IMG/VR virus record: IMGVR_UViG_3300003886_000002
DNA length: 64,000 bases
Direction: 5' to 3' (one strand)
Source: a virus
Part shown: piece after piece, positions 8,153-31,417 of the stretch
Layout of the letters: each line of letters opens with the position of its first letter
Numbering within the stretch: position 1 is the stretch's first letter
Notes under the pieces: model-generated
Database searches by the model: none
Told to the model about the DNA's origin: nothing
What the model saw: only the letters and a program-made list of their open reading frames with translations
Program-made: the position numbers and the translations under genes

Positions 8153-8263
8153 CTAGATGTGCAGCGGTAACTGCTCGGCATCGAACGGTCGAGGCTTGTC
8201 ACGCCCCAAGCGTTGCCGATTCTTATGGGCATGTGCCCCTGTGAGTCGCAGCCGCTTCATCAT
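8153..8263 (-). CDS. leader peptide of tRNA operon A (Leu/Pro/Gln/His/Asn/Lys)
   Basis: MMKRLRLTGAHAHKNRQRLGRDKPRPFDAEQLPLHI; ATG 9 nt after TATGAT. Confidence 0.7.
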   Translation of the reverse strand: MMKRLRLTGAHAHKNRQRLGRDKPRPFDAEQLPLHI

Positions 8264-12679: not shown

Positions 12680-12691
12680 ATATCTCCTTCG

Positions 12692-12763: not shown

Positions 12764-12776
12764 ATATCATTGCCTG

Positions 12777-12847
12777 TAGCGCCGGAGGGAATCGGACCCT
12801 CATCGCCCGAATATGAGTCGAGCACTCTACCATTGAGCTACGGCGCA
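12777..12847 (-). tRNA. tRNA-Met/Ile2(CAT)
   Basis: CTCGA-CTCATAT-TCGGG; T1:T72 mismatch. Confidence 0.8.
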
Positions 12848-12890
12848 GCGCAGATACCGTACCTGCTGAGGTACAGGTCGATCATATCAG

Positions 12891-12963
12891 TTGCCAGCCA
12901 GAGACTCGAACTCTGCACGGCCGCGATATCAGCACGGCACCATCACCCGATGGTCCACTGGCA
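12891..12963 (-). tRNA. tRNA-Ile(GAT)
   Basis: CCGTG-CTGATAT-CGCGG. Confidence 0.85.
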
Positions 12964-12970
12964 CTGGTTG

Positions 12971-13045
12971 AGCACCGGGTGAGATTTGAACTCACGACTA
13001 TACGGATTTGCAGTCCGTTCCTTTGGGCCGCTCAGGCACCGGTGC
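12971..13045 (-). tRNA. tRNA-Cys(GCA)
   Basis: ACGGA-CTGCAAA-TCCGT, U73. Confidence 0.9.
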
Positions 13046-13058
13046 TTACTTCGTTACG

Positions 13059-13131
13059 TACCCGAAGAGGGATTCGAACCCCCGTCACCTCGGTGTAAAC
13101 GAGGAGCTAGGCCAGACTCAGCTATTCGGGC
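13059..13131 (-). tRNA. tRNA-Val(TAC)
   Basis: CCTCG-TTTACAC-CGAGG. Confidence 0.9.
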
Positions 13132-13138
13132 TCGTTAT

Positions 13139-13213
13139 TGGTGGCCCCCGTGGGATTCGAACCCACCTCTCTTGCTCTTCAAACAAACGCTAATCCACCT
13201 CAGCTAGAGGGCC
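13139..13213 (-). tRNA. tRNA-Phe(GAA)
   Basis: TTTGT-TTGAAGA-GCAAG, CCA. Confidence 0.85.
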
Positions 13214-13253
13214 ATGGGCATCAGCCTTTAGGCATCTGCGATCTACTCCCGTA

Positions 13254-13328
13254 TGGAGCGAGTGCGGAGAGTCGAACTCCGTTTTCCGACTTGGAAGGAC
13301 GGCGCATCACCACCAATGCTTCACTCGC
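13254..13328 (-). tRNA. tRNA-Gly(TCC)
   Basis: CCGTC-CTTCCAA-GTCGG, GCG/CGC-T-CCA. Confidence 0.9.
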
Positions 13329-13394
13329 TAGATCTCTTTTGTTGTCAAGTGAAAGGCCCCTGTGAGAACCAGGGCACATTCTGTGCTGTTTCCG

Positions 13395-13467
13395 TGGAGC
13401 ATCGGGGCTTTGATCCCCGCACCTCCTGTTTGCAAAACAGGTGCTCTTCCAAATGAGCTAATGCCCC
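13395..13467 (-). tRNA. tRNA-Ala(TGC)
   Basis: CCTGT-TTTGCAA-ACAGG, G3:U70. Confidence 0.9.
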
Positions 13468-13545
13468 ATGGGGTGGGGACGGTTGCATTCAGCAGAACGC
13501 CTACTAACCGTCCCCACCCACCCAGCCCATCGCCTCTGGCAAGGT

Positions 13546-13620
13546 TGGGGGCGGGAGGGAGAATCGAACTCCCGGAACCTGGCTTATGAGGCCAAGTGGG
13601 CTACCAGCAGCCTTCCCGCA
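13546..13620 (-). tRNA. tRNA-Met(CAT), possibly initiator-like
   Basis: TTGGC-CTCATAA-GCCAG; 1:72 mismatch; CCA. Confidence 0.8.
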
Positions 13621-13638
13621 CGATCCTGGAACCTGAGG

Positions 13639-13731
13639 TCAGTCTATGCAGACTGTGCCTGTCCCTAAGGCGCCACCACGCGTAAACGTGGCAGCGGTGA
13701 TGATTCGTGCCGCTCGCTGTACTGTTCTCAT
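13639..13731 (-). CDS. leader peptide of tRNA operon B (Met/Ala/Gly/Phe/Val/Cys/Ile/Thr)
   Basis: GAGGAGG RBS; MRTVQRAARIITAATFTRGGALGTGTVCID. Confidence 0.8.
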   Translation of the reverse strand: MRTVQRAARIITAATFTRGGALGTGTVCID

Positions 13732-13769
13732 TGCGTTGGGCCTCCTCTCAGGTCCAGACCTGTGAAAGC

Positions 13770-13797
13770 ATCATAGCATAGATGCATGCCAGGTCAA
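13770..13797 (-). promoter_or_regulatory. promoter of tRNA operon B
   Basis: TTGACC-N16-TATGAT with extended TGn -10. Confidence 0.75.
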
Positions 13798-13804
13798 CCC
13801 CATA

Positions 13805-14488
13805 CTAGATGTTGTTACCTAAACGAATATCAACCAATAAGTCGTTGACCGCCCCCACGTTGGGGACTTCTGGCAAAAGGGAGTCAATGTTGCCTAGGCG
13901 GTCCAACAACTCCATAATCATTTGTTCGTAGTGCCCCACATTTGATACAGCAAGTTCCCCAGCCTCGAAACATGCATCTGCCTCTTCAGGCTCCAAACGC
14001 ACCTTTAACTGCCCCTCACGGAGAATATGCGCCCCCTGGATGGCCAACCGGTAACAGTGACGGCCGTGCTTCTCCGTTCGTTTCCTGAGATCCGATGAGA
14101 AGTCCCCACGCTGTTTAAGCCGATTCAGTTGCTGAAAGGCATACCCACCGTAGGTGTTACGGACCCGCTGTGACAAGAACAGGCTACGTGCATCGATAAG
14201 AACGTCTCCAATCTGTGTTCTAAGCACATATTCTGGGAGCCACAACAACTCGCTTATCGTTGGGTTAGCAGCCAAGGCAAGACGGCAGAACTTCCCCAAC
14301 TCGTGTATCGTACGATCCGGGGATCTCTGAACATAAGACTGATCCGTTTTGGATGCACCATTCAAACCCAAGACAGCATCTAGGGGTTCTACATAGATCC
14401 CAAGGAAATCTTGGTCACTATATGGGGTCGCGAGCCCATATGCACGAGACCCTACCATCCCCTCTAAAACAACATTGTGCCCACTCAT
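13805..14488 (-). CDS. Pol-beta-family nucleotidyltransferase (YcgL/RlaP-like)
   Basis: VGSRAYGLATPYSDQDFLGIY, ELGKFCRLALAANPTISELLW. Confidence 0.85.
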   Translation of the reverse strand: MSGHNVVLEGMVGSRAYGLATPYSDQDFLGIYVEPLDAVLGLNGASKTDQSYVQRSPDRTIHELGKFCRLALAANPTISELLWLPEYVLRTQIGDVLIDARSLFLSQRVRNTYGGYAFQQLNRLKQRGDFSSDLRKRTEKHGRHCYRLAIQGAHILREGQLKVRLEPEEADACFEAGELAVSNVGHYEQMIMELLDRLGNIDSLLPEVPNVGAVNDLLVDIRLGNNI

Positions 14489-14519
14489 CCGCCAAACCTA
14501 CCATACAGACATGACGCAT

Positions 14520-14654
14520 CTAAGCAGGCTGAGGGACAGGTTCCCTTACAGGTGGGGTTGTGGGCTGCGGTGATGGTTCCACACGCGCAGGCTCACGAAT
14601 AGGGGCGGGAACCACCAGGGGTTCTTCCCGTGTTGGCTGACCGATCTTACCCAT
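14520..14654 (-). CDS. 44-aa Pro-rich peptide (not in ORF track)
   Basis: MGKIGQPTREEPLVVPAPIREPARVEPSPQPTTPPVREPVPQPA, overlaps upstream stop, GGAG RBS. Confidence 0.6.
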   Translation of the reverse strand: MGKIGQPTREEPLVVPAPIREPARVEPSPQPTTPPVREPVPQPA

Positions 14655-15459
14655 TATCAATCTCCTCTAATTCATTTAGATACTGTAACATCTGTTTCCG
14701 CCGCAGCAAATGCATCCGTGCAGTTACCAGTAATAGGACTAGGATGACCAAGTTCCATACTGCTGGCAGCCAATCTGCTTTTCCGAGTAGAGACGATAAC
14801 CTTGACCAAGATTCCCAAGATAAACCGATGAATAGAATTCCCCACATCAAATCAAGACGGGTATCCCCACGGACTACCTTGATAGCGTCGCTTAAATCGT
14901 CACCAGATAGGTTCACCAAAGGGATATAAGAGTCACGTACCATCCGGGTGTGCTGCAACAGAGCCTCGCGTTCTGTTATAGGCGCTTCCTGGACAGGAAC
15001 CCCATAGGTTTTCCCCAAACGTTCGTGTCGTGTCAGTTTGATAGGACGATCCCTAAAGAATGCAAGACTCCTAATCTGCGCGTGCTGTGCACGATACCCC
15101 TTATCGTGTTCAAACACATTCCCGAACAACAATATCTGCCCGAACACGAGCCCATTCTCAAATGTCGCCGGGTCGAAATCTGCGAAGATGTCTGCAATGT
15201 CCTTATACCCATAGATCCCACACCCGTAAATGCCCTGTTTGCACTCTCTAGATGGAGATGCATGATCTGAATATGGGTCGGTCCCAGAGATTGCCACACA
15301 TTTTGCAGTCAGATACGTGGTATTCGGCCACACTGTGTTATTCATCGACAACAATACAGGAACATCCGCGTCATCAAACACACCCCACACCCGCCACGCA
15401 ACAATAGGCTCTGCCACGTCAGGGGTGAGGGCGTCGTCAAGGATAATCCCGATTGCCAT
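14647..15459 (-). CDS. hypothetical protein with C-terminal TM helices; paralog of next gene
   Basis: EPIVAWRVW, GCGIYGY, GNVFEHDKGYRAQHA. Confidence 0.75.
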   Translation of the reverse strand: MAIGIILDDALTPDVAEPIVAWRVWGVFDDADVPVLLSMNNTVWPNTTYLTAKCVAISGTDPYSDHASPSRECKQGIYGCGIYGYKDIADIFADFDPATFENGLVFGQILLFGNVFEHDKGYRAQHAQIRSLAFFRDRPIKLTRHERLGKTYGVPVQEAPITEREALLQHTRMVRDSYIPLVNLSGDDLSDAIKVVRGDTRLDLMWGILFIGLSWESWSRLSSLLGKADWLPAVWNLVILVLLLVTARMHLLRRKQMLQYLNELEEIDNG

Positions 15460-15494
15460 AGGGGAGATGCTAACAGGTGGGCATGACCGATGTT

Positions 15495-16115
15495 TCAGAG
15501 ATCTCTGATCGGGTCGGCTGTGTGAGAAGAATCTATCTTGTTTCCCCCTGGTTCGAGCACACGTGTGGTCGCGTTCCACTGTCCTCGTTCCCAAACCTTA
15601 CGTGCATCATGGATTAGCCCAACGCCATAAGCTTTAGAGAGTGCCCGCGCTACCTCTTCTACGCGCGACCCCAGTGTCCAAGCAAAAGCAGAAGGGTACG
15701 CATACTGTGCACGGAAACCGTACTCGTGTTCATAGACGTTCCCCCACATTAAGACCTCACCCCAAATCCTACCCCTCAAGTGCATGGGGTCGTTGTTCAT
15801 TGCGGCCATAGGCGGATCTCTGTAGGCATAAATGCCACAACCAAACCCATAGTGTGCACGCGAATCAGGTGATGGGCATTCCCCACAGTCTTTACCCTGC
15901 GTGCGACTGTCGATTGACGGGATGAGGCTATTTGCGCATACAGCGACAACATCTTTACCCGGCTCCCATATTTCTATATCAAGTTTCGACGACACACGTA
16001 CAGAAGGGGAAACATGGCTGTCCTGTAAACCTTTTACGTTCCAACCCCTATAGCCGACAATCGGCTCAATGACGTCAGGGATCAGAAAATCTAGTGGCTC
16101 TTCACCGAAGTCCAT
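15495..16115 (-). CDS. hypothetical protein; paralog of previous gene
   Basis: EPIVGYRGW, GCGIYAY, GNVYEHEYGFRAQYA; start trimmed to exclude tRNAs. Confidence 0.75.
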   Translation of the reverse strand: MDFGEEPLDFLIPDVIEPIVGYRGWNVKGLQDSHVSPSVRVSSKLDIEIWEPGKDVVAVCANSLIPSIDSRTQGKDCGECPSPDSRAHYGFGCGIYAYRDPPMAAMNNDPMHLRGRIWGEVLMWGNVYEHEYGFRAQYAYPSAFAWTLGSRVEEVARALSKAYGVGLIHDARKVWERGQWNATTRVLEPGGNKIDSSHTADPIRDL

Positions 16116-16170
16116 GTGGGACAGGTTACCTGATGGGGATGACACCACTGCCAATCTGATCCTATCTAAG

Positions 16171-16241
16171 TGCCCCGCCGGGGAGTCGAACCCGCGAACG
16201 GTAGAGGTAGAAACCCCACCTGAGCTTCCGGCTCGCGAGGC
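16171..16241 (-). tRNA. tRNA-Arg(TCT), atypical
   Basis: GGTGGGG-TTTCTAC-CTCTACC; no 8/9 linker. Confidence 0.75.
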
Positions 16242-16242
16242 G

Positions 16243-16314
16243 TGGCGCCCTTGGCGGGAGTCGAACCCGCTCGCCGCGTGTAGGAGACGCGTGTCTGGGT
16301 CCACCAGCAAGGGC
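16243..16314 (-). tRNA. tRNA-Arg(CCT), atypical
   Basis: CGCGT-CTCCTAC-ACGCG, CCA. Confidence 0.8.
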
Positions 16315-16318
16315 ATTG

Positions 16319-16392
16319 TCGGGCACCCGAGATTCGAACTCGGACTACCGGCCCCCCAGGCCGGGGTGCAACCAAACCGACACTCGTGCCCG
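16319..16392 (-). tRNA. tRNA-Pro(GGG)
   Basis: CCGGC-CTGGGGG-GCCGG. Confidence 0.85.
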
Positions 16393-16394
16393 CG

Positions 16395-16463
16395 CACCCA
16401 GGGTGAGACTCGAACTCACTAAACGTGGCTTCGGATGCCGCGTCCCATTCCTTTGGCCTGGGT
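16395..16463 (-). tRNA. tRNA-Arg(CCG), atypical
   Basis: ACGCGGC-ATCCGAA-GCCACGT. Confidence 0.75.
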
Positions 16464-16587
16464 AAATCGTCACCGTATCCCCTTTCAACCAAGTGTTTGC
16501 AGCAAACCCCTACAGTCTACCTGCACCCATATGTGTTGGCTTCCCCCACCACGGTAGAGACTAGTTTATCCTTGTGTGGCGAAGTTG

Positions 16588-16656
16588 CACCCCCGGCGCG
16601 AATCGAACGCGCTCGCCAGGATTCGTAGTCCTAGGTCCCTATCCATGGGCGGGGGT
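16588..16656 (-). tRNA. tRNA-Arg(ACG), atypical
   Basis: CTAGGA-CTACGAA-TCCTGG. Confidence 0.8.
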
Positions 16657-16743
16657 ATTGTTACCTACCCTGTCTTCTGTGTTCCGTGTTCTGGTATACC
16701 CGAACAGTGTAACCTATTCCATTCTTTAACATTCTTGTTTATG

Positions 16744-16821
16744 TGGCAGGGTCGTGAGGAGTCGAACCCCATCGTGTATCAGCAGGTTTGGAAGCTGCCC
16801 GGCAACCGTCGCCTCGACCCC
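16744..16821 (-). tRNA. tRNA-Trp(CCA)
   Basis: GCAGC-TTCCAAA-CCTGC, G73 CCA. Confidence 0.75.
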
Positions 16822-16837
16822 AGGTTGTAAATCTCAG

Positions 16838-16910
16838 TACCCCCAACGGGATTTGAACCCGTGTTACCTACGTGAAAGGCAGGCGTCCTGGGCCGCTAGA
16901 CGATGGGGGC
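16838..16910 (-). tRNA. tRNA-Glu(TTC)
   Basis: Canonical; CCTGC-CTTTCAC-GTAGG. Confidence 0.95.
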
Positions 16911-16927
16911 TTGTTCTGTGTGTTCCG

Positions 16928-17000
16928 CGGTCCTGCGGGGAGTCGAACCCCGATCTTCGCCTCGACAGGGCGTTATAATGAGCCGTTATACGACAGGACC
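16928..17000 (-). tRNA. tRNA-Asp(GTC)
   Basis: CGCC-CTGTCGA-GGCG. Confidence 0.9.
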
Positions 17001-17004
17001 TCAG

Positions 17005-17076
17005 TACCCCGTAGGAGAATCGAACTCCTGTTTCTGCCATGAGAAAGCAGTGTCCTAGCCACTAAACGAACGGGGC
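17005..17076 (-). tRNA. tRNA-Glu(CTC)
   Basis: CTGCT-TTCTCAT-GGCAG. Confidence 0.9.
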
Positions 17077-17111
17077 AGGTAGTGACAGCAAGGGCATCCC
17101 GCCCCCGTCAC

Positions 17112-17207
17112 TCAGATATCTCGTCTGCGCCTGGGCTCAGAATCAACGCGCGGCGAACGGGGCCATCGTGGCTCAACCTGTTCTACGGGTACCTCTCGCG
17201 TTTCCAT
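17112..17207 (-). CDS. leader peptide of tRNA operon C (Glu/Asp/Trp/Arg/Pro)
   Basis: METREVPVEQVEPRWPRSPRVDSEPRRRRDI; ATG 9 nt after TATAGT. Confidence 0.8.
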   Translation of the reverse strand: METREVPVEQVEPRWPRSPRVDSEPRRRRDI

Positions 17208-17216
17208 AGCAAAGCC

Positions 17217-17244
17217 ACTATAACAGGTAGCCATGACATGTCAA
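17217..17244 (-). promoter_or_regulatory. promoter of tRNA operon C
   Basis: TTGACA-N16-TATAGT. Confidence 0.8.
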
Positions 17245-17250
17245 GGCAGC

Positions 17251-17292
17251 AATAAAACAACCTACGCCCCCTGCCGAAACAGGGGGCGTAGG
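17251..17292 (-). terminator. intrinsic terminator
   Basis: CCTACGCCCCCTG-TTTCGG-CAGGGGGCGTAGG followed by TTGTTTTATT. Confidence 0.85.
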
Positions 17293-17515
17293 AGAAGCGA
17301 GGACTTGGCTGCCTCGAACAGGGGGCATCGGGTTGCCAATGCATTTGCCCCTGTACCACTCAATTGTCTGCCGACATCAGATTCCACCATCCACCGATGG
17401 CAGCCCTCCGCACAGACGTGCCTCGGGACCTTCTGACTTAAGTGTGCTGTGCGGCCAGCCGATGCGTACCGCTATTGAGCCACTCCTTACTCTCAGGAAG
17501 CTATCCCTTGAGCAA
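17255..17515 (-). ncRNA. candidate structured ncRNA (about 260 nt)
   Basis: Own promoter (17521-17542) and terminator, no credible ORF, several nested helices. Confidence 0.5.
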
Positions 17516-17542
17516 CCGACACCCTACCACATGGGGGTGACA

Positions 17543-18088
17543 CTAACCGGATGGGAAATGTTCGCAACCAAATACTTCCGACAGCGGTACCATTGCAACT
17601 ATGTCATCGCGCCCTGCAACGGGACGTGTGACCAAACGAACGGCCCCGTGCTCCTCGCATTCAGGGGAATGAAACCAGACGTCGTTGTTTCCGCTAGGGC
17701 CAGATGGGTAATCGACTAGGCAGTGTGAGCATATGGTCCACTTGGGATAGTCCCCATGAACCCGCATGACAATCTTTGCCAAAGCAATGATAGCGTCCTC
17801 AAACGTATCCCCGCCACAGTCCAATTCCCAATCATGCGTCTGGCCCCCATCGTCCTCCAACGGCCCACACTCTACCCAAATGTTGGTCTTGGTGTTCAGG
17901 GAATCATCATCTTCGACACGATCATTAACAGGATTCACTTTTACCACAATGAGATCGTATGCGATGGTGAAACCCTCGCTTCCCTTCATCGGGCCGTCCC
18001 TATAGCGAAAGTATGGATGTCCATAGAGCCAATCCCATGCTTCATGGAAATCGTCAAGGTTCGGGGTGAGCAATGGAAGATCAGTCAT
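17543..18088 (-). CDS. hypothetical protein
   Basis: 181-aa ORF, ATGA coupling. Confidence 0.7.
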   Translation of the reverse strand: MTDLPLLTPNLDDFHEAWDWLYGHPYFRYRDGPMKGSEGFTIAYDLIVVKVNPVNDRVEDDDSLNTKTNIWVECGPLEDDGGQTHDWELDCGGDTFEDAIIALAKIVMRVHGDYPKWTICSHCLVDYPSGPSGNNDVWFHSPECEEHGAVRLVTRPVAGRDDIVAMVPLSEVFGCEHFPSG

Positions 18089-18474
18089 CGTCTAAACCTC
18101 GGCCACCATCTGCGATGGGAGTAGGCCAATATGAGGTGTGAGAATAGGTGCGCCACGCTTGGGGAAGGGATCGCAGCAAATGCTGTCGCCTCAAAGGACA
18201 AATCGGGTTCACGGAATACTTCACGTACATCAACCCAATGCTTGATCCTGTAGTAGAAGTCAAGTAGCGCTTGCTGGTCATCTACTTCTAGAACGATAAG
18301 GTAATTCCCGTTAGGGTCGTCATGCCAACTCTTTGATGCGTCAGGAGCCCGTAGGCACATCTCTGCGACTGCGTGGCCAACCTGGGCGGCACGAAGCCCC
18401 GGGGGGAGATCCCCGCGGACAACGACATACATTTTCGTTTTTCCTGCCATTGCAGGAAGATCATCCGGTCTCAC
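18085..18474 (-). CDS. peptidyl-tRNA hydrolase, Pth2-like
   Basis: KMYVVVRGDLPPGLRAAQVGHAV, YLIVLEV, FREPDL. Confidence 0.8.
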   Translation of the reverse strand: MRPDDLPAMAGKTKMYVVVRGDLPPGLRAAQVGHAVAEMCLRAPDASKSWHDDPNGNYLIVLEVDDQQALLDFYYRIKHWVDVREVFREPDLSFEATAFAAIPSPSVAHLFSHLILAYSHRRWWPRFRR

Positions 18475-19133
18475 CTATAGTCCTTCCGTTTTATCTTCAC
18501 AGTGATACGTTTCCCTCTACCGTCGTAGATGTCAACTGCTGGACGCCCTACGATCCCTTCGGGGTGTGCAACCCCTTGCCACTGCGACCCTATATGGCCA
18601 TTTACGACGAAACCTTCTGCTGTGCAAATGTCGGCGGTAGCAGCCCCATCGAATTGGACCGTAGGGACTACGTCAATGCCCAATTTGTTGGCAATATCAA
18701 CAACGTTTGCACGTGAAAGCCAATAACGCCCTACCCGCACATCGAACAGCACGAAGTCTACGCTGTCCGCAATGTAATCCCCGCCTCCTTTCTGGATGCC
18801 AGCCCCATATCCTTCACCATACAACGTCACGTAATAGTTGGTGTCTGGGAAGGATTCGCGCCATGGGATAGTCTCTTGCAAACCTATCAGGCGTGCCAAA
18901 AGAGCAGAAGGGATCTGGGCACGGTCAGTGCGACCCCCGATATCGTATAGGGAATCATCTGGGTCTGTGAGGTCCTTCCCAAGCCTAATGTTGGTTCCGT
19001 CGATCTTCTCGGTCCAAACCCATTGGTTGTAGCGAAGGTACTCGAATACGGGGAGGCTAAACTGACCGTCGATGATCTTGCCTTTCTCCCCCCGCTTGTA
19101 CAGGCCGTTGATCTTAGGGTAGGCAGCGAACAT
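18471..19133 (-). CDS. ATP-dependent RNA ligase (Rnl2-type)
   Basis: YPKI, TEKIDGTN, LYGEGYG, FVLFDV, EGIV, VKIK. Confidence 0.9.
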   Translation of the reverse strand: MFAAYPKINGLYKRGEKGKIIDGQFSLPVFEYLRYNQWVWTEKIDGTNIRLGKDLTDPDDSLYDIGGRTDRAQIPSALLARLIGLQETIPWRESFPDTNYYVTLYGEGYGAGIQKGGGDYIADSVDFVLFDVRVGRYWLSRANVVDIANKLGIDVVPTVQFDGAATADICTAEGFVVNGHIGSQWQGVAHPEGIVGRPAVDIYDGRGKRITVKIKRKDYR

Positions 19134-19167
19134 GGGGATCACCTTACTAGGTGGGCATGACCCTGGG

Positions 19168-19581
19168 TCACGCCAAGTATGTTTCATGCATCTTGCGGAT
19201 GACCGCCTCACCAACGTGTCCCACCTCGCGGGATGCGTCGCGGCGAATGCACTCATCTAGGGGGACGCTGCGAAAATCTCGTATAAGGAACCTGGCCCCA
19301 TAGATGACAGCGAAACCCTCCAGGGCTGCAATGCACGATGGGTGAAAATTCGTGTCATCGCAGACAACAGAAAATCCTCTCCCCAGGAAACAACCCAGGA
19401 TGACGTCGCGGGCAGCTATGATCGTGACCTCGTTTTCCTCAGACCAAACCCCCACATCGACCATGCAACGTAAATCATCCCTGTTGATCCTCTTCACGGC
19501 ACCCCCCGAGCGAGACACGATACCTTTGGCCCAGGTTGTCTTACCAGATGCAGGGAGCCCAATGGTTGCGATCAAATCCAT
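19168..19581 (-). CDS. polynucleotide kinase (kinase domain only)
   Basis: GLPASGKTT, INRDDLR, DDTN, ECIRRDASR. Confidence 0.9.
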   Translation of the reverse strand: MDLIATIGLPASGKTTWAKGIVSRSGGAVKRINRDDLRCMVDVGVWSEENEVTIIAARDVILGCFLGRGFSVVCDDTNFHPSCIAALEGFAVIYGARFLIRDFRSVPLDECIRRDASREVGHVGEAVIRKMHETYLA

Positions 19582-19656
19582 GCTCGCACAGTAGCAGGTA
19601 GGGGGGACAACGCTTAGAGAAAGTGGCACAACCCGCTGTCCCGGTCCCATCTGTAT

Positions 19657-20829
19657 GTGGAAACCCTACACTTTGCCCCCCAACTATGGCAGACTGGTCG
19701 TATGACTTTCGGAGAAACAGAAGCATATTTAAACGCTAACGGACTCACTCCCCAATCGGTTTTCCAAACCCTTTTGATGCAACGAGTGGTAAACGGCGAC
19801 TTCAACTACATCGCGACAAAAGTGTTTGACAGCCCGTCAACGTGGTCTAGCGTCATCGAAGTATTAGCAGCAACCCCCGGTATACAGATCAAACAGGTTG
19901 GGGAAGTCAAATCGACCCTAAACGTTGCAGCCTTTGAACGTAAGAACTCTACGGCAGTGCTTACACAAGACCATTGGGGGGAGTGGGAGCTGCTAGTCGC
20001 CGTCAACGACTCAGGTGAAGCAGACCGCTGGATCGGGGCAGTTAAATCTCTACTTCCCCCGCACCCCCCCATCCCTGTCCCAGATCTTCCAAACAACATT
20101 GTCCCAGTGATGTTCTGGATGCAAAACCCCTACACAGGGGGAGCGGACTATCGACGCAGGAACATTGAAGTCACTAAATGGGAAGAGATCGAAGCCAACT
20201 ATCCCTGCGACACACGACACCAAATATCCGAGGTCATGGGCTCCGTCCAACCGGATGGGGAAGGCAAACTGATACTCTTCCAGGGTCCGCCGGGGACAGG
20301 GAAGACAAGGTCGATCCTGTCGCTGATCAGTGAATGGCGTGACTGGTGTTTCTCGTCTGTCGTTACGGACGCTGACAGGCTGCTAGGTGACCCAACCTAT
20401 CTCAACGATCTGCTATTCAGCATGGAAGGCCGAGGGGATTATCTCCTACTGATCATAGAAGACGGTGACGAATTCGTCAATGTTGACGAACGCTCATCTA
20501 AAGGCCAGGCACTTAGCCGTATCCTCAACATCGCCGACGGCATTATGGGGCAGGGGCTCAACATGTTGACCCTCATATCTACGAATGTATCCGTAGACAA
20601 ACTGAACCCGGCAATGGCACGCCCTGGGCGCTGCATGGCGAACATCCACTTCCCAGGGTTCTCATCTGATGAGGCTGCACAGTGGATGGAAGGGAAGATT
20701 GCAGAAAGTGATCTTGTCCCCGATGCCATTGAGGCGCTTACGCAAAGCAAATATGGGGTTTCTACAGACGACGTATCTTCGCCAGAACACATGTTCACTC
20801 TGGCAGAGCTTTACGATGCGCTGCGTTAA
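19657..20829 (+). CDS. AAA+ ATPase
   Basis: GPPGTGKT, LLIIEDGD, LNIADG, ARPGRC. Confidence 0.85.
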   Translation: METLHFAPQLWQTGRMTFGETEAYLNANGLTPQSVFQTLLMQRVVNGDFNYIATKVFDSPSTWSSVIEVLAATPGIQIKQVGEVKSTLNVAAFERKNSTAVLTQDHWGEWELLVAVNDSGEADRWIGAVKSLLPPHPPIPVPDLPNNIVPVMFWMQNPYTGGADYRRRNIEVTKWEEIEANYPCDTRHQISEVMGSVQPDGEGKLILFQGPPGTGKTRSILSLISEWRDWCFSSVVTDADRLLGDPTYLNDLLFSMEGRGDYLLLIIEDGDEFVNVDERSSKGQALSRILNIADGIMGQGLNMLTLISTNVSVDKLNPAMARPGRCMANIHFPGFSSDEAAQWMEGKIAESDLVPDAIEALTQSKYGVSTDDVSSPEHMFTLAELYDALR

Positions 20830-20832
20830 CGA

Positions 20833-21069
20833 CTAGTCCTCGACAAATATGCATTCGCCTGGGCAAGACTCAGCCGCCTCTGATACATCATCCTCGCATT
20901 CTTGAGGGACGACAGCCGCCTGTTCGCTCCCCCCGGGGGTATCCAGGACAACCCCATTCTGAACTGCGTAGGCCAAGGGGTTACGGCCGCGCATAATGAA
21001 CACGTTAGGGCAAATCTCTTCGCAGAGCCCATCGCCTGTGCAATCTTCTTGTATGATCCATACCTTCAT
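20833..21069 (-). CDS. ferredoxin
   Basis: MKVWIIQEDCTGDGLCEEICP...AAESCPGECIFVE. Confidence 0.9.
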   Translation of the reverse strand: MKVWIIQEDCTGDGLCEEICPNVFIMRGRNPLAYAVQNGVVLDTPGGSEQAAVVPQECEDDVSEAAESCPGECIFVED

Positions 21070-21132
21070 AACGTACCCCCGTGGCGCTACTCCCACCATA
21101 CGCGCAAGAGCCACCCCGTAGGGTGACCCTTT

Positions 21133-21548
21133 TGGTGGAGCCGGGGGGTATCGAACCCCCGTCCAATGAGAGATTACGCTGTCCGATGTACAACCATCCT
21201 TCGTCTTTCCGAAGCGTCAGTGCAATGGGGTTTCCCCTGTCGCAACTAGCGGGTCTTTCCCCGCAGTCGTGAACAGTATGCCTGTCCCGGCATTCAGTCT
21301 TTCCTGAATGTCAACTCGTCTGTCCGTGTTGTCAGACTGATTGGATAGCAAGGTTCAGTCAGACCCCGTCCTGCTCGTCTATCAAACGAGGACGCTTTCG
21401 CAAGCATCAAACTCTGCCCAAAGGGCGTCAGATTCAGGAGCCTCGGTGTTGTCCTCGGCGTGTATTTTGGTGCCCCGTTTCACGAGTCTGAGCAACTCGG
21501 GTTGCGTTCGGCGCTCACAGGCTCATTGTCGAATCCTGTTTCAGCCCC
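21133..21548 (-). ncRNA. ssrA: tmRNA
   Basis: 5' GGGGCTGAAACAGGATTCGAC; 3' GTTCGATACCCCCCGGCTCCACCA; tag ORF 21459-21382. Confidence 0.95.
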
Positions 21549-21585
21549 TAGTTGTTGCTACACACCCTACCACATGGGGGTGACA

Positions 21586-21867
21586 TCAGTTGTACCCCAT
21601 GCGACCCTTCATCGCATTCATTGCAACATCCGAATTAGCGATAATCGTTTCAATCGCATCTGGGTTGTCTACATTGTGTAGGTTTACCCCAGACATGCGG
21701 GCCAATACCCCATAGGCTGCTGCTACCGCTAGGAAGGCCCCACGTAACTCGTCGAGATCCATCGCTATAAGCACACTATGTGCTGCACCCATGTCGCCTC
21801 GTTCTACGGGGCCTAAGAACTTGCAGATATTGGTGAGGTTGCGGCGGATTATCTGAGAATCTTCCAT
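21586..21867 (-). CDS. hypothetical protein
   Basis: 93-aa ORF behind promoter motif. Confidence 0.6.
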   Translation of the reverse strand: MEDSQIIRRNLTNICKFLGPVERGDMGAAHSVLIAMDLDELRGAFLAVAAAYGVLARMSGVNLHNVDNPDAIETIIANSDVAMNAMKGRMGYN

Positions 21868-21921
21868 ACGGCATCATACCCCATTCTATGGTCACCCGGG
21901 ATGCTGCATCTTTCTACTTTG

Positions 21922-22004
21922 CGGAGAGCGGAGGACACGATCCCCAAGCCTTACGACTCCGGCCACTTTCCAGGTGGCGTCAACACCTTGTCGATTCACT
22001 CTCC
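21922..22004 (-). tRNA. tRNA-Ser(GGA)
   Basis: GCCAC-CTGGAAA-GTGGC, long variable arm. Confidence 0.85.
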
Positions 22005-22086
22005 ATGTTGAGAGAATCATGTATCTAAATCCTCTCAAGGAATATAAGACTCATGACCCTTAACGCAGGGACATGTATCTCATTTG

Positions 22087-22169
22087 CGGAAGGAGAGGGA
22101 TTCGAACCCCCAACTCCTGACGAAGCCACAGTTTTCAAAACTGCTTGGCACCCCAATGCCGGTCCTTCC
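22087..22169 (-). tRNA. tRNA-Ser(TGA)
   Basis: GCAGT-TTTGAAA-ACTGT. Confidence 0.9.
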
Positions 22170-22188
22170 TTGTCTAATCTATCCTGAG

Positions 22189-22271
22189 CGGAGAGTGGAG
22201 GAGTTGCACCCCATGCCTCGCGACACGTATCGCTTTCGAAACGACCCCAGCGCTTTGCCGGTTCGCCCTCC
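22189..22271 (-). tRNA. tRNA-Ser(CGA)
   Basis: GTCGT-TTCGAAA-GCGAT. Confidence 0.85.
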
Positions 22272-22324
22272 AATATGTAACCGAACGTCTACATTCGTTC
22301 CCTGTAAAGGTTCGGTTACATAAG

Positions 22325-22411
22325 CGGAACGTCGAGGACTTGCACCCCAACCCCATGTGGGATCGAACGCCTTAGCAGGGCGCCCCGGCACGCTTGTCCG
22401 GTTGGCATTCC
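22325..22411 (-). tRNA. tRNA-Ser(GCT)
   Basis: GCGCC-CTGCTAA-GGCGT. Confidence 0.85.
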
Positions 22412-22475
22412 ATCGCTTACATCTAAACCGGATTCGCTGCCGAGAACACACAGATTCCGGTATGGATCTAAGTCG

Positions 22476-22554
22476 TGAGAGGGGTGAGAATCGAACTCAC
22501 CATGCCTAAGCACCTGGGTTACAGCCAGGTTGTCCACCTTGGAGCGTCCCTCCC
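22476..22554 (-). tRNA. tRNA-Tyr(GTA)
   Basis: CCTGG-CTGTAAC-CCAGG, long variable arm. Confidence 0.85.
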
Positions 22555-22576
22555 GAGAGAGGACACGCGCGTGCCC

Positions 22577-22633
22577 TCAGTCGCTAGATGAGCGACTCGA
22601 ATACGATGCGGACGAATACAGAAGACGATTCAT
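22577..22633 (-). CDS. leader peptide of tRNA operon D (Tyr/Ser)
   Basis: MNRLLYSSASYSSRSSSD; ATG 9 nt after TATGAT. Confidence 0.85.
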   Translation of the reverse strand: MNRLLYSSASYSSRSSSD

Positions 22634-22673
22634 GACTATCTCATCATAACACACGGGGGGGACATCGATAGAC

Positions 22674-23309
22674 CTAGGGTCGAGCTAATGCACACTCCAC
22701 CACTTCAAGAGCATCAATTTCGTTCCATGCCCCATCACGCCCACCGTCAGAAATCAACCATCGGTATAGATCGTTTACCTGTTCGAATACAGGGGACACA
22801 GGGGTCCCATCTGTAATGGTTTCGTACACTTGCCAGCTAGTCGGGGCCTCATCGAATGTCGGGCGGAACGTGGTACTGTTCTGCCGTTGAGATGGTTTAG
22901 GCCCATGCCATTCGTCGAAAGCCGGGCCTGTTTGCGGCATGTCGTCGGGCTGATTGGGATACTCCCCAGAAATCCACTGCAACAGATATGACTCCCATTC
23001 CACACAAGCCTCATCAAATGTCTGGTCGTGCATAGGGATAAACGTCTCCCCGTCAGATAACCCGAGGTCGAGACGGTACTTAGTGACAGCGTCCATACGG
23101 GCCTCATTGCCCTCTGGGTCACCGGGAGACATTCGGCCAAGATACCTGTCCTCTAACGATGCCCTAATGTAAGAGTCATGTGCCATCTCGTTACGCGTAA
23201 TCACAGATGGGTGTGCCCACGCGGCAGAAGGAAACGCATCGGTGTCTGTAGACTTTGGGTGCTGCCATCCAGGCGGAACCCTACGGATCTCACGATTCTT
23301 TTTCGACAA
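22674..23309 (-). CDS. hypothetical phage protein
   Basis: REIRRVPPGWQHP...WQVYETITDGTPVSPVF; GGAGG RBS. Confidence 0.75.
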   Translation of the reverse strand: MSKKNREIRRVPPGWQHPKSTDTDAFPSAAWAHPSVITRNEMAHDSYIRASLEDRYLGRMSPGDPEGNEARMDAVTKYRLDLGLSDGETFIPMHDQTFDEACVEWESYLLQWISGEYPNQPDDMPQTGPAFDEWHGPKPSQRQNSTTFRPTFDEAPTSWQVYETITDGTPVSPVFEQVNDLYRWLISDGGRDGAWNEIDALEVVECALARP

Positions 23310-23318
23310 TGTTCCTCC

Positions 23319-23876
23319 CTAAGGTTTCGGGGCTATCCTATCTAACATTCCGAGCACCCGCCGAGGCAAATCATCCAAAACCCCATTGTTGTAGATGGTG
23401 TGACCGAAATCCCATTGGTCCAAATCCTTTTCGGACGTGTGTCCGTTCACTGCTTGCACCCCTGGCCTTATAATGCGTACAGCAGTTCCGCCAGCAGCAA
23501 CAATTGCGCCTGCTTCATTAGCGAAACGCATATCTGTGAAAACGACTCGTTCGAATTTCTTAGCTCGCATCATCCCGATGGTAACCCACGTGTCCTTGCC
23601 TATGATTTCCCGCACTGCTTCTGTGCCTAGGACTTGCAAGAAACGTCGTACCTCTAGGTGATCACGTTTTGCCCTTTCGTATCCCACGTCATCCAGCAGA
23701 TCACTGTACCTGATGAAACGAAGCCCTTCATCGCTGTCGATAATTGGGTTTATTGCAAGTGCCATCTCACGGAGGGGATCAGCAAAACCCATTTTCGTAA
23801 ACGAAAAGTCGTCGACAAGTATGTCTGCTATGGCGTCTTTGCCACTACCTGCCCAGCCTGATAAACCAATGATCAT
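23319..23876 (-). CDS. deoxynucleoside monophosphate kinase
   Basis: MIIGLSGWAGSGKD, FADPLRE, RRFLQVLGTE, DMRFANE, HTSE. Confidence 0.9.
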   Translation of the reverse strand: MIIGLSGWAGSGKDAIADILVDDFSFTKMGFADPLREMALAINPIIDSDEGLRFIRYSDLLDDVGYERAKRDHLEVRRFLQVLGTEAVREIIGKDTWVTIGMMRAKKFERVVFTDMRFANEAGAIVAAGGTAVRIIRPGVQAVNGHTSEKDLDQWDFGHTIYNNGVLDDLPRRVLGMLDRIAPKP

Positions 23877-27790: not shown

Positions 27791-30700
27791 TCATGTACCA
27801 CAGCATGGGGGCTCTGCCTCATCTTGCACATCTGCAACCTCGGGGTTGATTGTCTCTACCCCATTATCGTTGCCGACGCGTCCCAAGATTGCAAAAAGAC
27901 GTGACGCTGCACGTTCTGCACGGATAGGTCGCAGAGCCCCACGAAGCTCAACAATCTCTGCACGAAGCTCAGCCACGTCAGCCCCAAGTGATCCCACCTG
28001 GGGAAATGTGCGCTGCACCATACCTGCCGCGACAAGTGACCTCATTTCACCAGAACCTGAATCGTAGATACCCTGAGGGTTACGACCAGCAGATGCAACC
28101 AAACTGTCTTGGACAATGAACCCTGAGAGGTTCACAGCCAACAGCCCAACCACCTCAAGGTTCTTCCTGATCCTACGCCAGTCAGGAGAGATATCTGAGC
28201 CACGGAGCGCTTGCACCTGCTCCGGAGAAGCGCTAGGTCGAACCGCCCCAGCGGCAACAATTCCCCACGCATTCTCATACAGGTGAACGTCTGCTACAGC
28301 ACACCCCGTATCTGCATAGTGCGCCTCAGCATCCGAAGCCAACAACCGCAGGTTGGGGTGAACCGTATCCATGTAGACAGGGCCACATAGCACCTGCTCG
28401 CCCTCATCAGTAACAACCCCGGGCTTATGGAATGCACTGAACCTGTTCTCTGTATGTGGGACACCCACACACTTATCGGAGAACCCGATATGGCAAGATC
28501 CCCACCGGGCAATCAACCCATAGCAGCGTCCATCTGCATATACCTGAAACTCCTCAGGCTCACCCATGTCGTCAAGTTCGAACCAAGAAGTAGGGGGATT
28601 CAAAGGAGGCGTCAAATTCTTGTTCCCTGCACTGGCGACAAGCGAATCAGGACTCACACGCTGCATGCGCTCTCCCTGCAAAGCGATAGGGACTGGTGAT
28701 GTAAAGCGCCACACATCCCCACGCTCATACCCAGAGGCAACCAATGCTTCGTCATCAGATGCTATGTCTGCGTCAATCACGTGTACCTGTGCCTCTTGGA
28801 ACGCTGGAAAAGGTGTAAGCGTGGCTCCCATGAGCCTGCCTTCTATGAGGACCTGTAGTATATCGTCATCAGAAAGCATCGCGTCAAGAGGGTCTACCTG
28901 ACCGCCACTTGCGTCTTGGAACTCGATAGTTACCATGTCTATGTCTGCGGAAACTCCACGCATGGTACCTTCCGCTATGAGGCGGCGCGCTTCCTTCCCT
29001 TGCTCCCCAGAATCAAAGGAACCACGTCCTATGATCTCTTGGCCTACACGCTCAATCTCCTGTATAGACCCGGCGATAGCTGCACCATCGTGGCCCTCAG
29101 CGTTTACTGTCTGCAACATGAGGGGCAGTGGCAGCTTGCGCCACGTTAGGGTACCTTCGCTTATGAGGCGCCCATCACCAGAAACAACCCCTTCCACAAT
29201 GAGTACCCCCTCCCATTCGAAGTCGCCGCTGACAACGTCCCCATCGATGATCGTATCGTCGCTAGACGTTGCGCTATCCCCATCTGTTCCATCTGGCTGA
29301 GAGTTCGGGCCGTCAACGATTTCATCGTCTCCTGCAAGCTCCTGTACGGAGTCGTCGCTCAACCCCAGTTCGGTTTCTAGTTCCTGTTGTTCCTGAGGGG
29401 TCAATGTTGACTGGCTCTGCTCAACCCATCGGTGAACAATTTCACCAATAAGTTCCCCGTCATTGAGTTCAGTAATATCGCGCTTGCCTGCAAGGTTCGC
29501 TACCTGTTCAAACCACTGAGCCCTCATGTCGCCTATAGCGCTTTCTACATCTGTGATGGGCTCGGCCTCACCTAGATCTGGGACGTTGACCCCTCCGTCG
29601 CGGAGGTGGCGGGCAAGGTGGTTAAAGACCCCTTGGTAATCGCTTGTTGGGATGGTGGAATCATCGATTACGGTAATGGCAGAATGGGCTGCCCACATGA
29701 CTGCTGCCCCAGGGTTGCCATCTTGGTCCACCACGTGGTGAATGAACTTGTATGCGGTCTTTGACCCGGCGGCTCTGTCCTCGTCTCGCCAAGCGAAGAT
29801 ACGTGCGTAGTAGCTTTGGTCTTCTCCCTGGCGGGTACGTTTCTTCGCCTCGTCACCGTTCCACCCTTCGAAGGTGGCAGGGTTGATCGTGGGGGTGCTA
29901 TGGGATGCTAGTGGCCCAAACTCTGCCACTATTTCAGTGGCTGTTGTGTCAAAGTCTTCGTTGGGGTCTACAGGGTTGTTGATGTAGTAGAGATCTACTA
30001 AGTCTGACATGTACCTATGGTCAGTAGGGTTAACAACTACCCCTTCTTCTACGGCCTGTGCGAGCAGTCCAGCATCTTGCAGCGACATCAGCTCAGGTGG
30101 TTCAAGGTCCGCATCGCTCAAATGGGATGCCAGGTGTTTGTAAACCCCTTCCCTGTCTCCACTCGGGATGGTTGTTCCCCCACGTGCCCCATTTAGGACA
30201 CCGATGCCTGTAGACGCCGCGACTGTTGATGCATCCCCTGGGGTTCCGTCATCACCAACGAAGTGATGTATGAACCTGTAGGCGGCTTTCACAGTAGTGT
30301 CTGCCTCATCATCACGCCACGCGTAGATACGAGCGAAATAGTCCTCGTCGCTAGGGGACGTAACCTTCTTCTCGTTCTCCGGCCCATCCCAAGTGTCGAC
30401 AGATGTAGGGGTGTCATGAGGGCTGATAGCAGCAAACGGTTCACTTCCGTCGTCCATCTCGTCTTCATCATCTGTCGTGTCTGTGCCCAAATCGGCAGCA
30501 ATGCCACTCATGAATTCCAAGATGGCTGCCCACTGATCTTCCGTAACCGATGACGATTCTTCACCGTCAGGAGTATCCTCGCTTTCAACCAACTTATCCA
30601 TAGCTTCCTGGGCGGACTCTACAGAATCGTGGCAGCTGATGACAGCCCCGGATTCTGGATCTACGAGTGCCACTGTTGATTCCCCATCGGTGCTCTCGAC

Positions 30701-31417
30701 ACAGTCAGCAGAGTCCTCAACAATGTCCAACCCCGCGGGGTCACCTACAAAGGTCTCCTGTGTACTACCTACTACGGTCTTTGCGGCCACGGTCAATTCC
30801 TCCTCAGTCGGCCCGGAAAGACCCACGTCAACGATTTCTGTACCCCAACGTAATGTGATGTTATCTAAATTCAATGGTAGACCAACTAGGTCCGCGCTGT
30901 CGGGAACTGGCCCATAGTTCAACGTAATATGTGGCTGGAAGTCGTGGTCTTGACGCACTGAGACGCCATTCTCGTTTAGCAGATGCACCAAATCGCTTCT
31001 GAACTCACCTAACCCAGGGGCATCTACCAACGCCAAAGTAATCCCATCAGTCCCGCTCTTCCCGAAAGATCCGATACCTGCTACTTCCCCATCGAAAGGG
31101 GAATAACGCTCTGCAACCCCAGCGATAACTGCCTCTACTGTTTCGCGATCCAACCCGTCACTGATAGCCCCCAGGGAAGCAAGAGTGACATGTAGAGATT
31201 CAGGCTGTTCCCCGCCTGACCGGGCCAACTCTTGTTTCTGGTCGTCTGTAGGCTCAACAGTAACGATGGCACTGTTGGAATGGTCAGCAAACGCCTGTGC
31301 GCGTTCCATCTTTGACGATAGAAGCACAAACAGGTTCTCAGGGAACTCCCCTACACTAACCAGCCCAGGGGTAGACACATCGGCAGAGCCACCGCTTATG
31401 GTAGTGATATCAGTCAT
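27791..31417 (-). CDS. head maturation protease-like protein fused to 2H phosphoesterase and duplicated domain
   Basis: LHVTL and PHITL motifs; two ARI[YF]AWRD...Y[RK]FIHH repeats; WEGVLIVEG..SGDGR..LPLPL..GHDGA..GVSAD; directly after portal. Confidence 0.75.
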   Translation of the reverse strand: MTDITTISGGSADVSTPGLVSVGEFPENLFVLLSSKMERAQAFADHSNSAIVTVEPTDDQKQELARSGGEQPESLHVTLASLGAISDGLDRETVEAVIAGVAERYSPFDGEVAGIGSFGKSGTDGITLALVDAPGLGEFRSDLVHLLNENGVSVRQDHDFQPHITLNYGPVPDSADLVGLPLNLDNITLRWGTEIVDVGLSGPTEEELTVAAKTVVGSTQETFVGDPAGLDIVEDSADCVESTDGESTVALVDPESGAVISCHDSVESAQEAMDKLVESEDTPDGEESSSVTEDQWAAILEFMSGIAADLGTDTTDDEDEMDDGSEPFAAISPHDTPTSVDTWDGPENEKKVTSPSDEDYFARIYAWRDDEADTTVKAAYRFIHHFVGDDGTPGDASTVAASTGIGVLNGARGGTTIPSGDREGVYKHLASHLSDADLEPPELMSLQDAGLLAQAVEEGVVVNPTDHRYMSDLVDLYYINNPVDPNEDFDTTATEIVAEFGPLASHSTPTINPATFEGWNGDEAKKRTRQGEDQSYYARIFAWRDEDRAAGSKTAYKFIHHVVDQDGNPGAAVMWAAHSAITVIDDSTIPTSDYQGVFNHLARHLRDGGVNVPDLGEAEPITDVESAIGDMRAQWFEQVANLAGKRDITELNDGELIGEIVHRWVEQSQSTLTPQEQQELETELGLSDDSVQELAGDDEIVDGPNSQPDGTDGDSATSSDDTIIDGDVVSGDFEWEGVLIVEGVVSGDGRLISEGTLTWRKLPLPLMLQTVNAEGHDGAAIAGSIQEIERVGQEIIGRGSFDSGEQGKEARRLIAEGTMRGVSADIDMVTIEFQDASGGQVDPLDAMLSDDDILQVLIEGRLMGATLTPFPAFQEAQVHVIDADIASDDEALVASGYERGDVWRFTSPVPIALQGERMQRVSPDSLVASAGNKNLTPPLNPPTSWFELDDMGEPEEFQVYADGRCYGLIARWGSCHIGFSDKCVGVPHTENRFSAFHKPGVVTDEGEQVLCGPVYMDTVHPNLRLLASDAEAHYADTGCAVADVHLYENAWGIVAAGAVRPSASPEQVQALRGSDISPDWRRIRKNLEVVGLLAVNLSGFIVQDSLVASAGRNPQGIYDSGSGEMRSLVAAGMVQRTFPQVGSLGADVAELRAEIVELRGALRPIRAERAASRLFAILGRVGNDNGVETINPEVADVQDEAEPPCCGT

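Follow-up and report, generated by a model that had tools for sequence, protein, structure and literature searches.

A stretch of 64,000 nucleotides (nt) from IMG/VR virus record IMGVR_UViG_3300003886_000002, here called the window, carries on its minus strand a miniature open reading frame (mini-ORF), leader D, ahead of an array of one tyrosine (Tyr) and four serine (Ser) transfer RNA (tRNA) genes. The concentration of Ser and Tyr codons in leader D is far above chance expectation. We favor, with a probability of about one in two, a reading in which leader D acts as a ribosome-based gauge of Ser/Tyr decoding and sets the output of its tRNA array. The leader idea is well supported by comparison with related contigs, and we infer that leader D is translated, together with the direction of its control and the step that it regulates.

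A Ser/Tyr-Rich Mini-ORF Heads the Tyr/Ser tRNA Array

22577..22633, minus strand: leader D mini-ORF, MNRLLYSSASYSSRSSSD followed by TGA, from ATG at 22633 to TGA at 22577
22475..22554, minus strand: tRNA-Tyr (gta), ARAGORN at default settings
22324..22411, minus strand: tRNA-Ser (gct), ARAGORN at a relaxed threshold; orthologues in contigs L001, L002, L016, and L017
~22185..22270 (approximate ends), minus strand: tRNA-Ser (cga), ARAGORN at a very low threshold, and consensus with the L001 and L002 orthologues
22086..22169, minus strand: tRNA-Ser (tga), ARAGORN at default settings
21921..22004, minus strand: tRNA-Ser (gga), ARAGORN at a relaxed threshold

Leader D reads ATG AAT CGT CTT CTG TAT TCG TCC GCA TCG TAT TCG AGT CGC TCA TCT AGC GAC TGA. 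As the first-pass annotation of this locus had claimed, 8 of its 18 sense codons specify Ser (three TCG and one each of TCC, TCA, TCT, AGT, and AGC), so that all six Ser codons are present, and there are two Tyr codons, both TAT. Ser and Tyr account for 10 of the 17 codons after the start, against 9.2% in the long ORFs of the phage (binomial P = 4.6e-7; P = 5e-6 against random codons). This enrichment is limited to the frame of the mini-ORF, the other five frames holding 0–4 such codons in 16–17, and it is matched by none of the 769 ORFs of 15–40 codons in the window. Codons 5–12, which lie outside predicted structure, are likewise rich in Ser and Tyr. The occurrence of all six Ser codons within eight draws is only mildly unusual (P = 0.089).

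The annotation had also placed four tRNA-Ser genes behind tRNA-Tyr. ARAGORN finds only Ser(tga) among these four at its default threshold, the gct and gga genes requiring a relaxed and the cga gene a very low one, and none of the five tRNAs of the D block reaches the gathering score of the Rfam tRNA model. Ser(cga) and its L001 and L002 orthologues share a cloverleaf-like consensus of 28 pairs, three of which show compensatory changes. In L001 and L002/L003 the order is Tyr followed by Ser gct, cga, tga, and gga, as in the window. The calls at varied thresholds, with the order kept in relatives, bear out the array as first described. Between the last tRNA-Ser gene and the transfer-messenger RNA (tmRNA) gene lies a conserved ORF of 93 amino acids (aa) that belongs to no known family (21586-21867, minus strand; 9810-10090 in L001).

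Leader Composition Is Specific to the Downstream tRNA Block

Three sister leaders stand ahead of the other tRNA blocks of the window; counts give codons for amino acids of the leader's own block.

17112..17207, minus strand: leader C, METREVPVEQVEPRWPRSPRVDSEPRRRRDI, 21/30 codons, P = 2e-6; ahead of Glu, Asp, Glu, Trp, Arg, Pro, Arg, and Arg tRNAs
13639..13731, minus strand: leader B, MRTVQRAARIITAATFTRGGALGTGTVCID, 22/29 codons, P = 2.7e-4; ahead of Met, Ala, Gly, Phe, Val, Cys, Met, Ile, and three Thr tRNAs
8153..8263, minus strand: leader A, MMKRLRLTGAHAHKNRQRLGRDKPRPFDAEQLPLHI, 17/35 codons, P = 2.6e-3; ahead of three Leu, Pro, Gln, His, Gln, Asn, and two Lys tRNAs

The matrix of leaders against block amino acids is strongly diagonal. 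Own-block counts are 10/17, 21/30, 22/29, and 17/35 for leaders D, C, B, and A, and counts for foreign blocks range from 0 to 12 (3, 1, and 3 for D; 2, 6, and 6 for C; 0, 5, and 2 for B; 0, 12, and 9 for A). The true leader-block pairing ranks best among the 24 permutations. Leader C, like leader D, has no equal among the 769 short ORFs of the window, and the enrichment of leader D is the strongest of the four, in line with its earlier description as the clearest single case.

Two further features lie in the region of block A. A 38-codon ORF with an AAGGAGG ribosome-binding site and six Lys codons (6190-6306, minus strand) directly precedes tRNA-Lys(ttt) and tRNA-Lys(ctt); it is a weak candidate for a fifth leader (P = 1e-3), and no counterpart was seen in the corresponding gap of L016. 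An HNH endonuclease gene (6692-7234, minus strand) sits between the His and Gln(ttg) tRNAs, and since L016 shows no gap at this site, it looks like a homing-endonuclease insertion.

The Match Is Kept in Diverged Relatives

Contigs L001 (identical to L005), L004, and L002/L003 were reached through relatives of the 211-aa protein encoded upstream of leader D (52%–69% identity). A second route, through aligned relatives of RlaP, gave L016, L017, and L018, viral contigs that are syntenic (about 52% identity). The latter three hold four tRNA blocks in the order of the window, each accompanied by a mini-ORF and by a promoter of the window's family, and include orthologues of leaders A, B, and C. Altogether, five metagenomic contigs related to the window carry the same leader-block system. 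Orthologues of leader D were located as follows.

L001, 9062-9118: leader D orthologue, MNRRLYSSASYSSRSSSD
L002, 1233-1289: leader D orthologue, MTRHLYSSASYSSRSSSD
L016, 1952-2005: leader D orthologue, MKRFSVSEVYSSYSSSS
L017, 2729-2782: leader D orthologue with a GTG start, METRSPLSESYRYSSSS

In the close relatives L001 and L002 the nucleotide sequence of leader D is highly conserved. Eight of the nine substitutions that separate the window from L001 fall at third positions (seven synonymous codon changes and one non-synonymous), as do 9 of the 11 that separate it from L002, and this third-position periodicity points to selection on the reading frame. The N-terminal residues of the peptide vary freely. 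In the distant leaders of L016 and L017 the sequence has diverged, and Ser and Tyr still make up 9–10 of 16 codons. Ser richness, on whose conservation in homologous leaders the first-pass annotation had staked its reading, is thus kept in all five contigs with a D-type leader, the window included.

Own-block enrichment extends to 16 of 16 leader-block pairs over six contigs (P from 2e-7 to 2.4e-3, with the best of up to ten candidate ORFs taken per site), and for 135 of 138 tRNAs the leader of their own block holds a codon that they can read. These counts exclude stray low-score calls that ARAGORN made away from the arrays (L016 5281 and 12671; L018 13 to 425, a truncated D block, 3164, 7652, 11461, and 11986; L001 2580). 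The same succession, with a promoter first, then a mini-ORF enriched for the amino acids that its tRNAs carry, and finally a hairpin, recurs at the four arrays of the window and in 12 leader-block pairs of its relatives. The same scanner found no comparable leaders at eight tRNA loci of six other phage records (Streptomyces phage Sham, Mycobacterium phage ScoobyDoobyDoo, IMG/VR record G002, and the distant RlaP-bearing phages L019, L020, and L022), which marks the pattern as a trait of the lineage and not of the method.

Searches with the DNA of 21800-23400 against phage records and with the upstream 211-aa protein against phages (tblastn) gave no match, indicating that the phage has no close relative among cultured phages. 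Single-protein scans of viral contigs, made with the 211-aa and with the 204-aa protein, yielded no new locus, no close relatives of the 315-aa protein were found, and genome contigs scanned with alignment A1 gave nothing. The RtcB-anchored loci L008 and L009 were considered as relatives and ruled out because they are not syntenic.

The Leader-Block Match Lies at the Level of Amino Acids

The use of all six Ser codons had suggested sensing at the level of individual isoacceptors. None of the analyses bearing on this proposal supports it, whether synonymous shuffles, the fraction of readable codons, or the presence of codons that match particular anticodons. When the peptides are held fixed and synonymous codons are redrawn from phage usage, no tRNA of the block is left without a codon in 64%, 74%, 50%, and 45% of trials. 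Across 16 leaders, scored under strict wobble, 235 of 263 codons for block amino acids can be read by the block's own tRNAs, and codon usage predicts 233.7 (z = 0.32). Ser codon identity drifts among relatives (TCG to TCC, TCG to TCA, TCA to TCG, and TCT to TCG), and TCT is lost in L002. Two anticodon-codon pairs, tRNA-Arg(CCG) and leader C codon CGG, and tRNA-Ile(TAT) and leader B codon ATA, agree in four of four genomes; many other such pairs disagree, and a lack of CGG among eight Arg codons has P = 0.28. Leader D cannot by itself separate the two levels, because four tRNA-Ser species cover all six Ser codons. The match between leader and block is thus one of isotype. What stands of the earlier reading is a conserved Ser/Tyr-rich mini-ORF at the head of a Tyr/Ser tRNA unit; its isoacceptor-level component does not.

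Predicted Promoters Would Place Leaders A, C, and D on Nearly Leaderless Transcripts

Each of the four tRNA blocks of the window is headed by a mini-ORF and by one of the top sigma-70-like promoter matches of the region. All promoters described here are predicted sites, identified by sequence and alignment.

22641..22670, minus strand: D-unit promoter, with a −10 box TATGAT at 22648..22643, TG upstream, a weak −35, and a GTC-CCCCC-GTG spacer motif
17244-17217, minus strand: leader C promoter, TTGACA-16-TATAGT
13797-13770, minus strand: leader B promoter, TTGACC-16-TATGAT
8300-8273, minus strand: leader A promoter, TTGACG-16-TATGAT

The leader D promoter aligns with those of leaders A, B, and C, with the tmRNA promoter, and with the D promoters of L001 and L002. 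The shared motif, which also precedes the tmRNA gene, is GTCAC-CCCC-n5-G-TAnnnT. An nhmmer profile of the family matches 22670-22641 at E = 2.7e-4, a site that was among the input sequences of the profile. The −10 box and the ATG are 9 nt apart in leaders A, C, and D, and leader B has a Shine-Dalgarno site at its start. Ordinary long genes at 4652 and 42407 have the same motif 6–8 nt ahead of their ATG, so leaderless starts appear to be normal in this phage; the leader ATG, 7–10 nt past the −10 box, is placed like those of its real leaderless genes.

Sites of the family were found ahead of tRNA arrays, the tmRNA gene, ordinary leaderless genes, and small units that lack an ORF (8270-8301, 17214-17245, 21561-21592, 22640-22671, 13767-13798, 61655-61685, 925-956, 63690-63721, 4615-4652, and 42378-42407). 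A regulator of the phage may bind the conserved promoter spacer. A candidate small RNA of the phage (17255-17543, minus strand) adjoins the leader C promoter on its upstream side; in it, a family promoter (17543-17520) is followed by ~250 nt with no notable ORF and by a strong terminator (17292-17261). Its predicted fold has an energy of −114 kcal/mol (z = −3.63, with 0 of 200 shuffles as good), and it has no Rfam match.

Two Hairpins Enclose the Stop Codon of Leader D

Minimum free energy (MFE) and consensus folds predict two adjacent hairpins at the end of leader D.

22579..22597, minus strand: hairpin P1, AGUCGCU-CAUCU-AGCGACU, within codons 13–18 and ending on the U of UGA
22559..22578, minus strand: hairpin P2, GAGGGCAC-GCGC-GUGUCCUC, starting on the GA of UGA
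22555..22558, minus strand: spacer UCUC (TCTC in DNA), 4 nt from P2 to the 5′ end of tRNA-Tyr; UCAC in L001 and L002

P2, which in DNA form reads GAGGGCAC-GCGC-GTGTCCTC from 22578 to 22559, is the hairpin that had been described as overlapping the TGA and ending just before tRNA-Tyr. Its position agrees with that description, and the hairpin is real and bears compensatory change. A C-G pair of P2 is replaced by G-C in L002, and a G-C pair is G-U in the window. In P1, both bases of three of the eight pairs differ in L016 and L017, and these positions still pair. The position of P2 is taken by a hairpin of other sequence in L016 and by a weaker hairpin in L017. Leaders of types C, B, and A likewise place the stop codon in or beside hairpins, and in leader B a long stem links the 5′ untranslated region to sequence past the stop. 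In seven of nine folded D- and C-type leaders the last hairpin is separated from the first tRNA by 4–6 unpaired nt, the exceptions being L001 (1 nt) and the D leader of L017 (2 nt).

In the fold of L001, 7 base pairs join leader codons 6–8 (UAU UCC UCC) to the 5′ strand of the tRNA-Tyr acceptor stem (9080-9090 with 9146-9152). This pairing is possible in L002 and is absent from the folds of both L002 and the window; because a mismatch breaks it in the window, we did not count it as conserved, and it was rejected as a candidate regulatory pairing.

Genomic Context

The window holds 29 tRNA genes and the tmRNA gene between 6017 and 22554 (ARAGORN default), with all tRNA genes on the minus strand. 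The arrays are interleaved with genes for RtcB, RNA ligase, AAA_33 kinase, RlaP, PTH2 peptidyl-tRNA hydrolase, Clp protease, a WhiB regulator, and a deoxynucleotide kinase. The WhiB gene and the best protein matches point to a phage of Actinobacteria, and the protein database gives a length of 158,210 bases for the contig from which the window comes. A tRNA-repair and ribosome-rescue island (8305-21548, minus strand) comprises RtcB, a metallophosphoesterase, a methyltransferase, Clp protease, RlaP, PTH2, RNA ligase, AAA_33 kinase, a small ferredoxin, and the tmRNA, for which ARAGORN gives the tag AEDNTEAPESDALWAEFDACESVLV. Also on the minus strand are genes for two proteins of ~1,200 aa (27791-31417 and 31410-35051), one with an N-terminal 2H/LigT-like phosphoesterase domain and the other with Hint/intein matches that suggest an intein-bearing gene.

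Discussion

Because the composition of each leader is specific to its block and frame and is kept through sequence divergence, the speed at which each leader is translated probably matters for its own array. We envisage the following course for leader D. Transcription would start at the unit's own promoter, with the ATG 9 nt past the −10 box, giving a nearly leaderless messenger RNA (mRNA) on which a ribosome would translate leader D as the transcript emerges. Where Ser/Tyr decoding is slow, for instance because host tRNAs have been cut or are ill-suited to the phage, the ribosome would linger on the ORF and prevent P1 and P2 from folding, and array output would rise. Where decoding is fast, the ribosome would terminate and depart, P1 and P2 would fold, and output would fall. 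Negative feedback through P1 and P2 is thus the most likely sign of control. With neither a U-tract terminator nor a competing antiterminator, the regulated step may be hairpin-dependent pausing or termination, access of Rho, or access of RNase P to the first tRNA, which lies 4 nt downstream of P2.

Several observations weigh against this reading. No terminator-like site was found between leader D and the tRNAs (22640 to 21900), and P2 is followed by UCUC or UCAC and by no U tract. When three lineages were folded with the footprint of a stalled or terminating ribosome masked, no common alternative helix replaced P2 or the tRNA fold, both of which were retained. The absence of both defining RNA features, a U-tract terminator and antiterminator pairing, means that leader D is not a classical attenuator; a weak hairpin with a run of T occurs only in leader A (8133-8114), and the phage uses a canonical hairpin with a U tract elsewhere (17292-17261). 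At the level of codons the match does not exceed the expectation from codon usage, and sensing of tRNA species and sensing of amino acids are inseparable here. Leader A is the weakest of the leaders and, taken by itself, is equaled by 15 of the 769 window ORFs. Finally, a terminating ribosome would itself melt P2, and the opposite sign of control fits equally well.

That opposite sign defines a rival in which P1 and P2 melt only under a ribosome that translates the leader to its end; this would expose a single-stranded 5′ leader for RNase P or free a paused polymerase, so that the array would be matured only when Ser/Tyr decoding already works. A nearby helix may block RNase P. The placement of the stop codon inside both P1 and P2, such that a terminating ribosome must unfold both, speaks for this licensing scheme, as do the short unpaired gap before the first tRNA in most folded leaders and the fact that a terminator and an antiterminator, looked for at leader D, were not found. 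Such positive feedback on tRNA supply would, however, have no obvious benefit during a tRNA shortage, and control of first-tRNA processing alone would leave the other four tRNAs uncontrolled; we regard it as rather unlikely. A leader that is translated without sensing anything is a quite unlikely explanation. Ribosomes loaded at the 5′ end would shield a long untranslated tRNA transcript from Rho and RNases, with P1 and P2 insulating tRNA folding and stopping ribosomes from running in. The leaderless architecture and the hairpins at the stop codon of every leader suit this idea, and in Mycobacterium tuberculosis premature termination is reportedly tied to Rho and to translated upstream ORFs (uORFs) (10.1101/2022.06.01.494293). 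It leaves unexplained, however, that every leader favors the amino acids carried by exactly the block behind it over those of the other blocks, and that this composition survives sequence divergence.

The third-position bias of substitutions is what purifying selection on a peptide would produce, and the mini-ORFs might accordingly encode functional micropeptides whose match to the tRNAs is secondary. Against this, four unrelated peptides each match their own block, sequences diverge across lineages as composition stays, and the N-terminal residues vary freely, which makes micropeptides a very improbable account. We give equally little credence to a chance ORF on a structured RNA leader, in which the hairpins alone matter and the frame is incidental. 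P1 is indeed formed from Ser codons of two boxes (UCN and AGY) that are able to pair together, and the nucleotides of the D leader are highly conserved in L001 and L002. Yet chance is opposed by the binomial P values, by the restriction of the enrichment to one frame, and by the absence of any equal among 769 ORFs, as well as by the third-position substitutions (8 of 9) and the Ser/Tyr richness of the unstructured codons 5–12; with 16 of 16 leader-block pairs enriched, the present counts come close to refuting it.

Several known systems resemble a Ser/Tyr-gauging leader in part. T-box riboswitches also sense tRNA status, on behalf of genes of the translation apparatus, and bind uncharged tRNA directly with no ribosome, whereas leader D would need one. 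No T-box or other cis-regulatory Rfam family reached its gathering score in 4000-26000, and no T-box match was obtained at E ≤ 1 in 21500-22700. In the leader-peptide attenuators of amino-acid operons (trpL, hisL, and pheL, and the multivalent thrL and ilvGMEDA), a short 5′ ORF is rich in codons whose decoding the downstream genes support, and a hairpin lies at the end of the ORF. Leader D is alike in both respects and, like the multivalent leaders, combines several amino acids in one leader. It differs in that it would control tRNAs instead of biosynthetic enzymes, is borne by a phage on a nearly leaderless mRNA, and has neither a U-tract terminator nor alternative terminator and antiterminator structures. 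The general principle of leader-peptide attenuation is set out in PMC1183508.

By analogy, the closest tested precedent in Actinobacteria is the mycobacterial whiB7 uORF, whose amino-acid composition is described as deciding which shortage is sensed, and where knockdown of tRNAs or tRNA synthetases induces whiB7 (PMC10274678). The actinobacterial setting and the role of uORF amino-acid content are shared. whiB7 has a rho-independent terminator and an antiterminator, and its output is a transcription factor; leader D has neither element, and its output would be tRNAs. The cyanobacterial long tRNA array (L-array) operon, reported to be induced by translational stress, offers a parallel for a tRNA array regulated as an operon that responds to translation trouble (PMC8421152). 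The L-array is chromosomal, whereas the leader D array is phage-borne, and a term search of the text of the L-array paper found no mention of a leader, of attenuation, of a small or upstream ORF, or of a terminator (PMC8421152). Phage tRNAs have been described as countering tRNA-cleaving host defenses (PMC10264068, PMC11555353), which would provide a motive for tRNAs on demand; as far as those accounts go, they concern the tRNAs and not the control of their expression. Full-text literature searches returned no paper describing leader ORFs ahead of tRNA arrays. Sensing through leader peptides is known from the control of amino-acid biosynthetic enzymes; its use on tRNAs, and in the absence of a classical terminator/antiterminator pair, would be new.

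A broader proposal is that this lineage of actinobacterial phages gates each tRNA array by a translated "census" mini-gene whose codons call for the amino acids of the array's own tRNAs. A shortage of those tRNAs, as under attack by a host anticodon nuclease, would slow ribosomes and switch on the replacement tRNAs through a twin hairpin at the stop codon, with no classical terminator. We advance this tentatively, at somewhat less than even odds; if true, it would represent a new type of tRNA homeostasis and of counter-defense control. The system is compact, consisting of a promoter, 18 codons, two hairpins, and a tRNA, and could act as a natural sensor of isotype-specific decoding stress. The neighboring tRNA-repair and ribosome-rescue genes fit a module for damaged or missing tRNAs, and sensing leaders, if they are such, would link the arrays to these genes. 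It has long been asked why phages carry tRNA arrays and when these are used. If leaders do read decoding capacity on behalf of their own tRNAs, phage tRNA supply would be regulated on demand, block by block.

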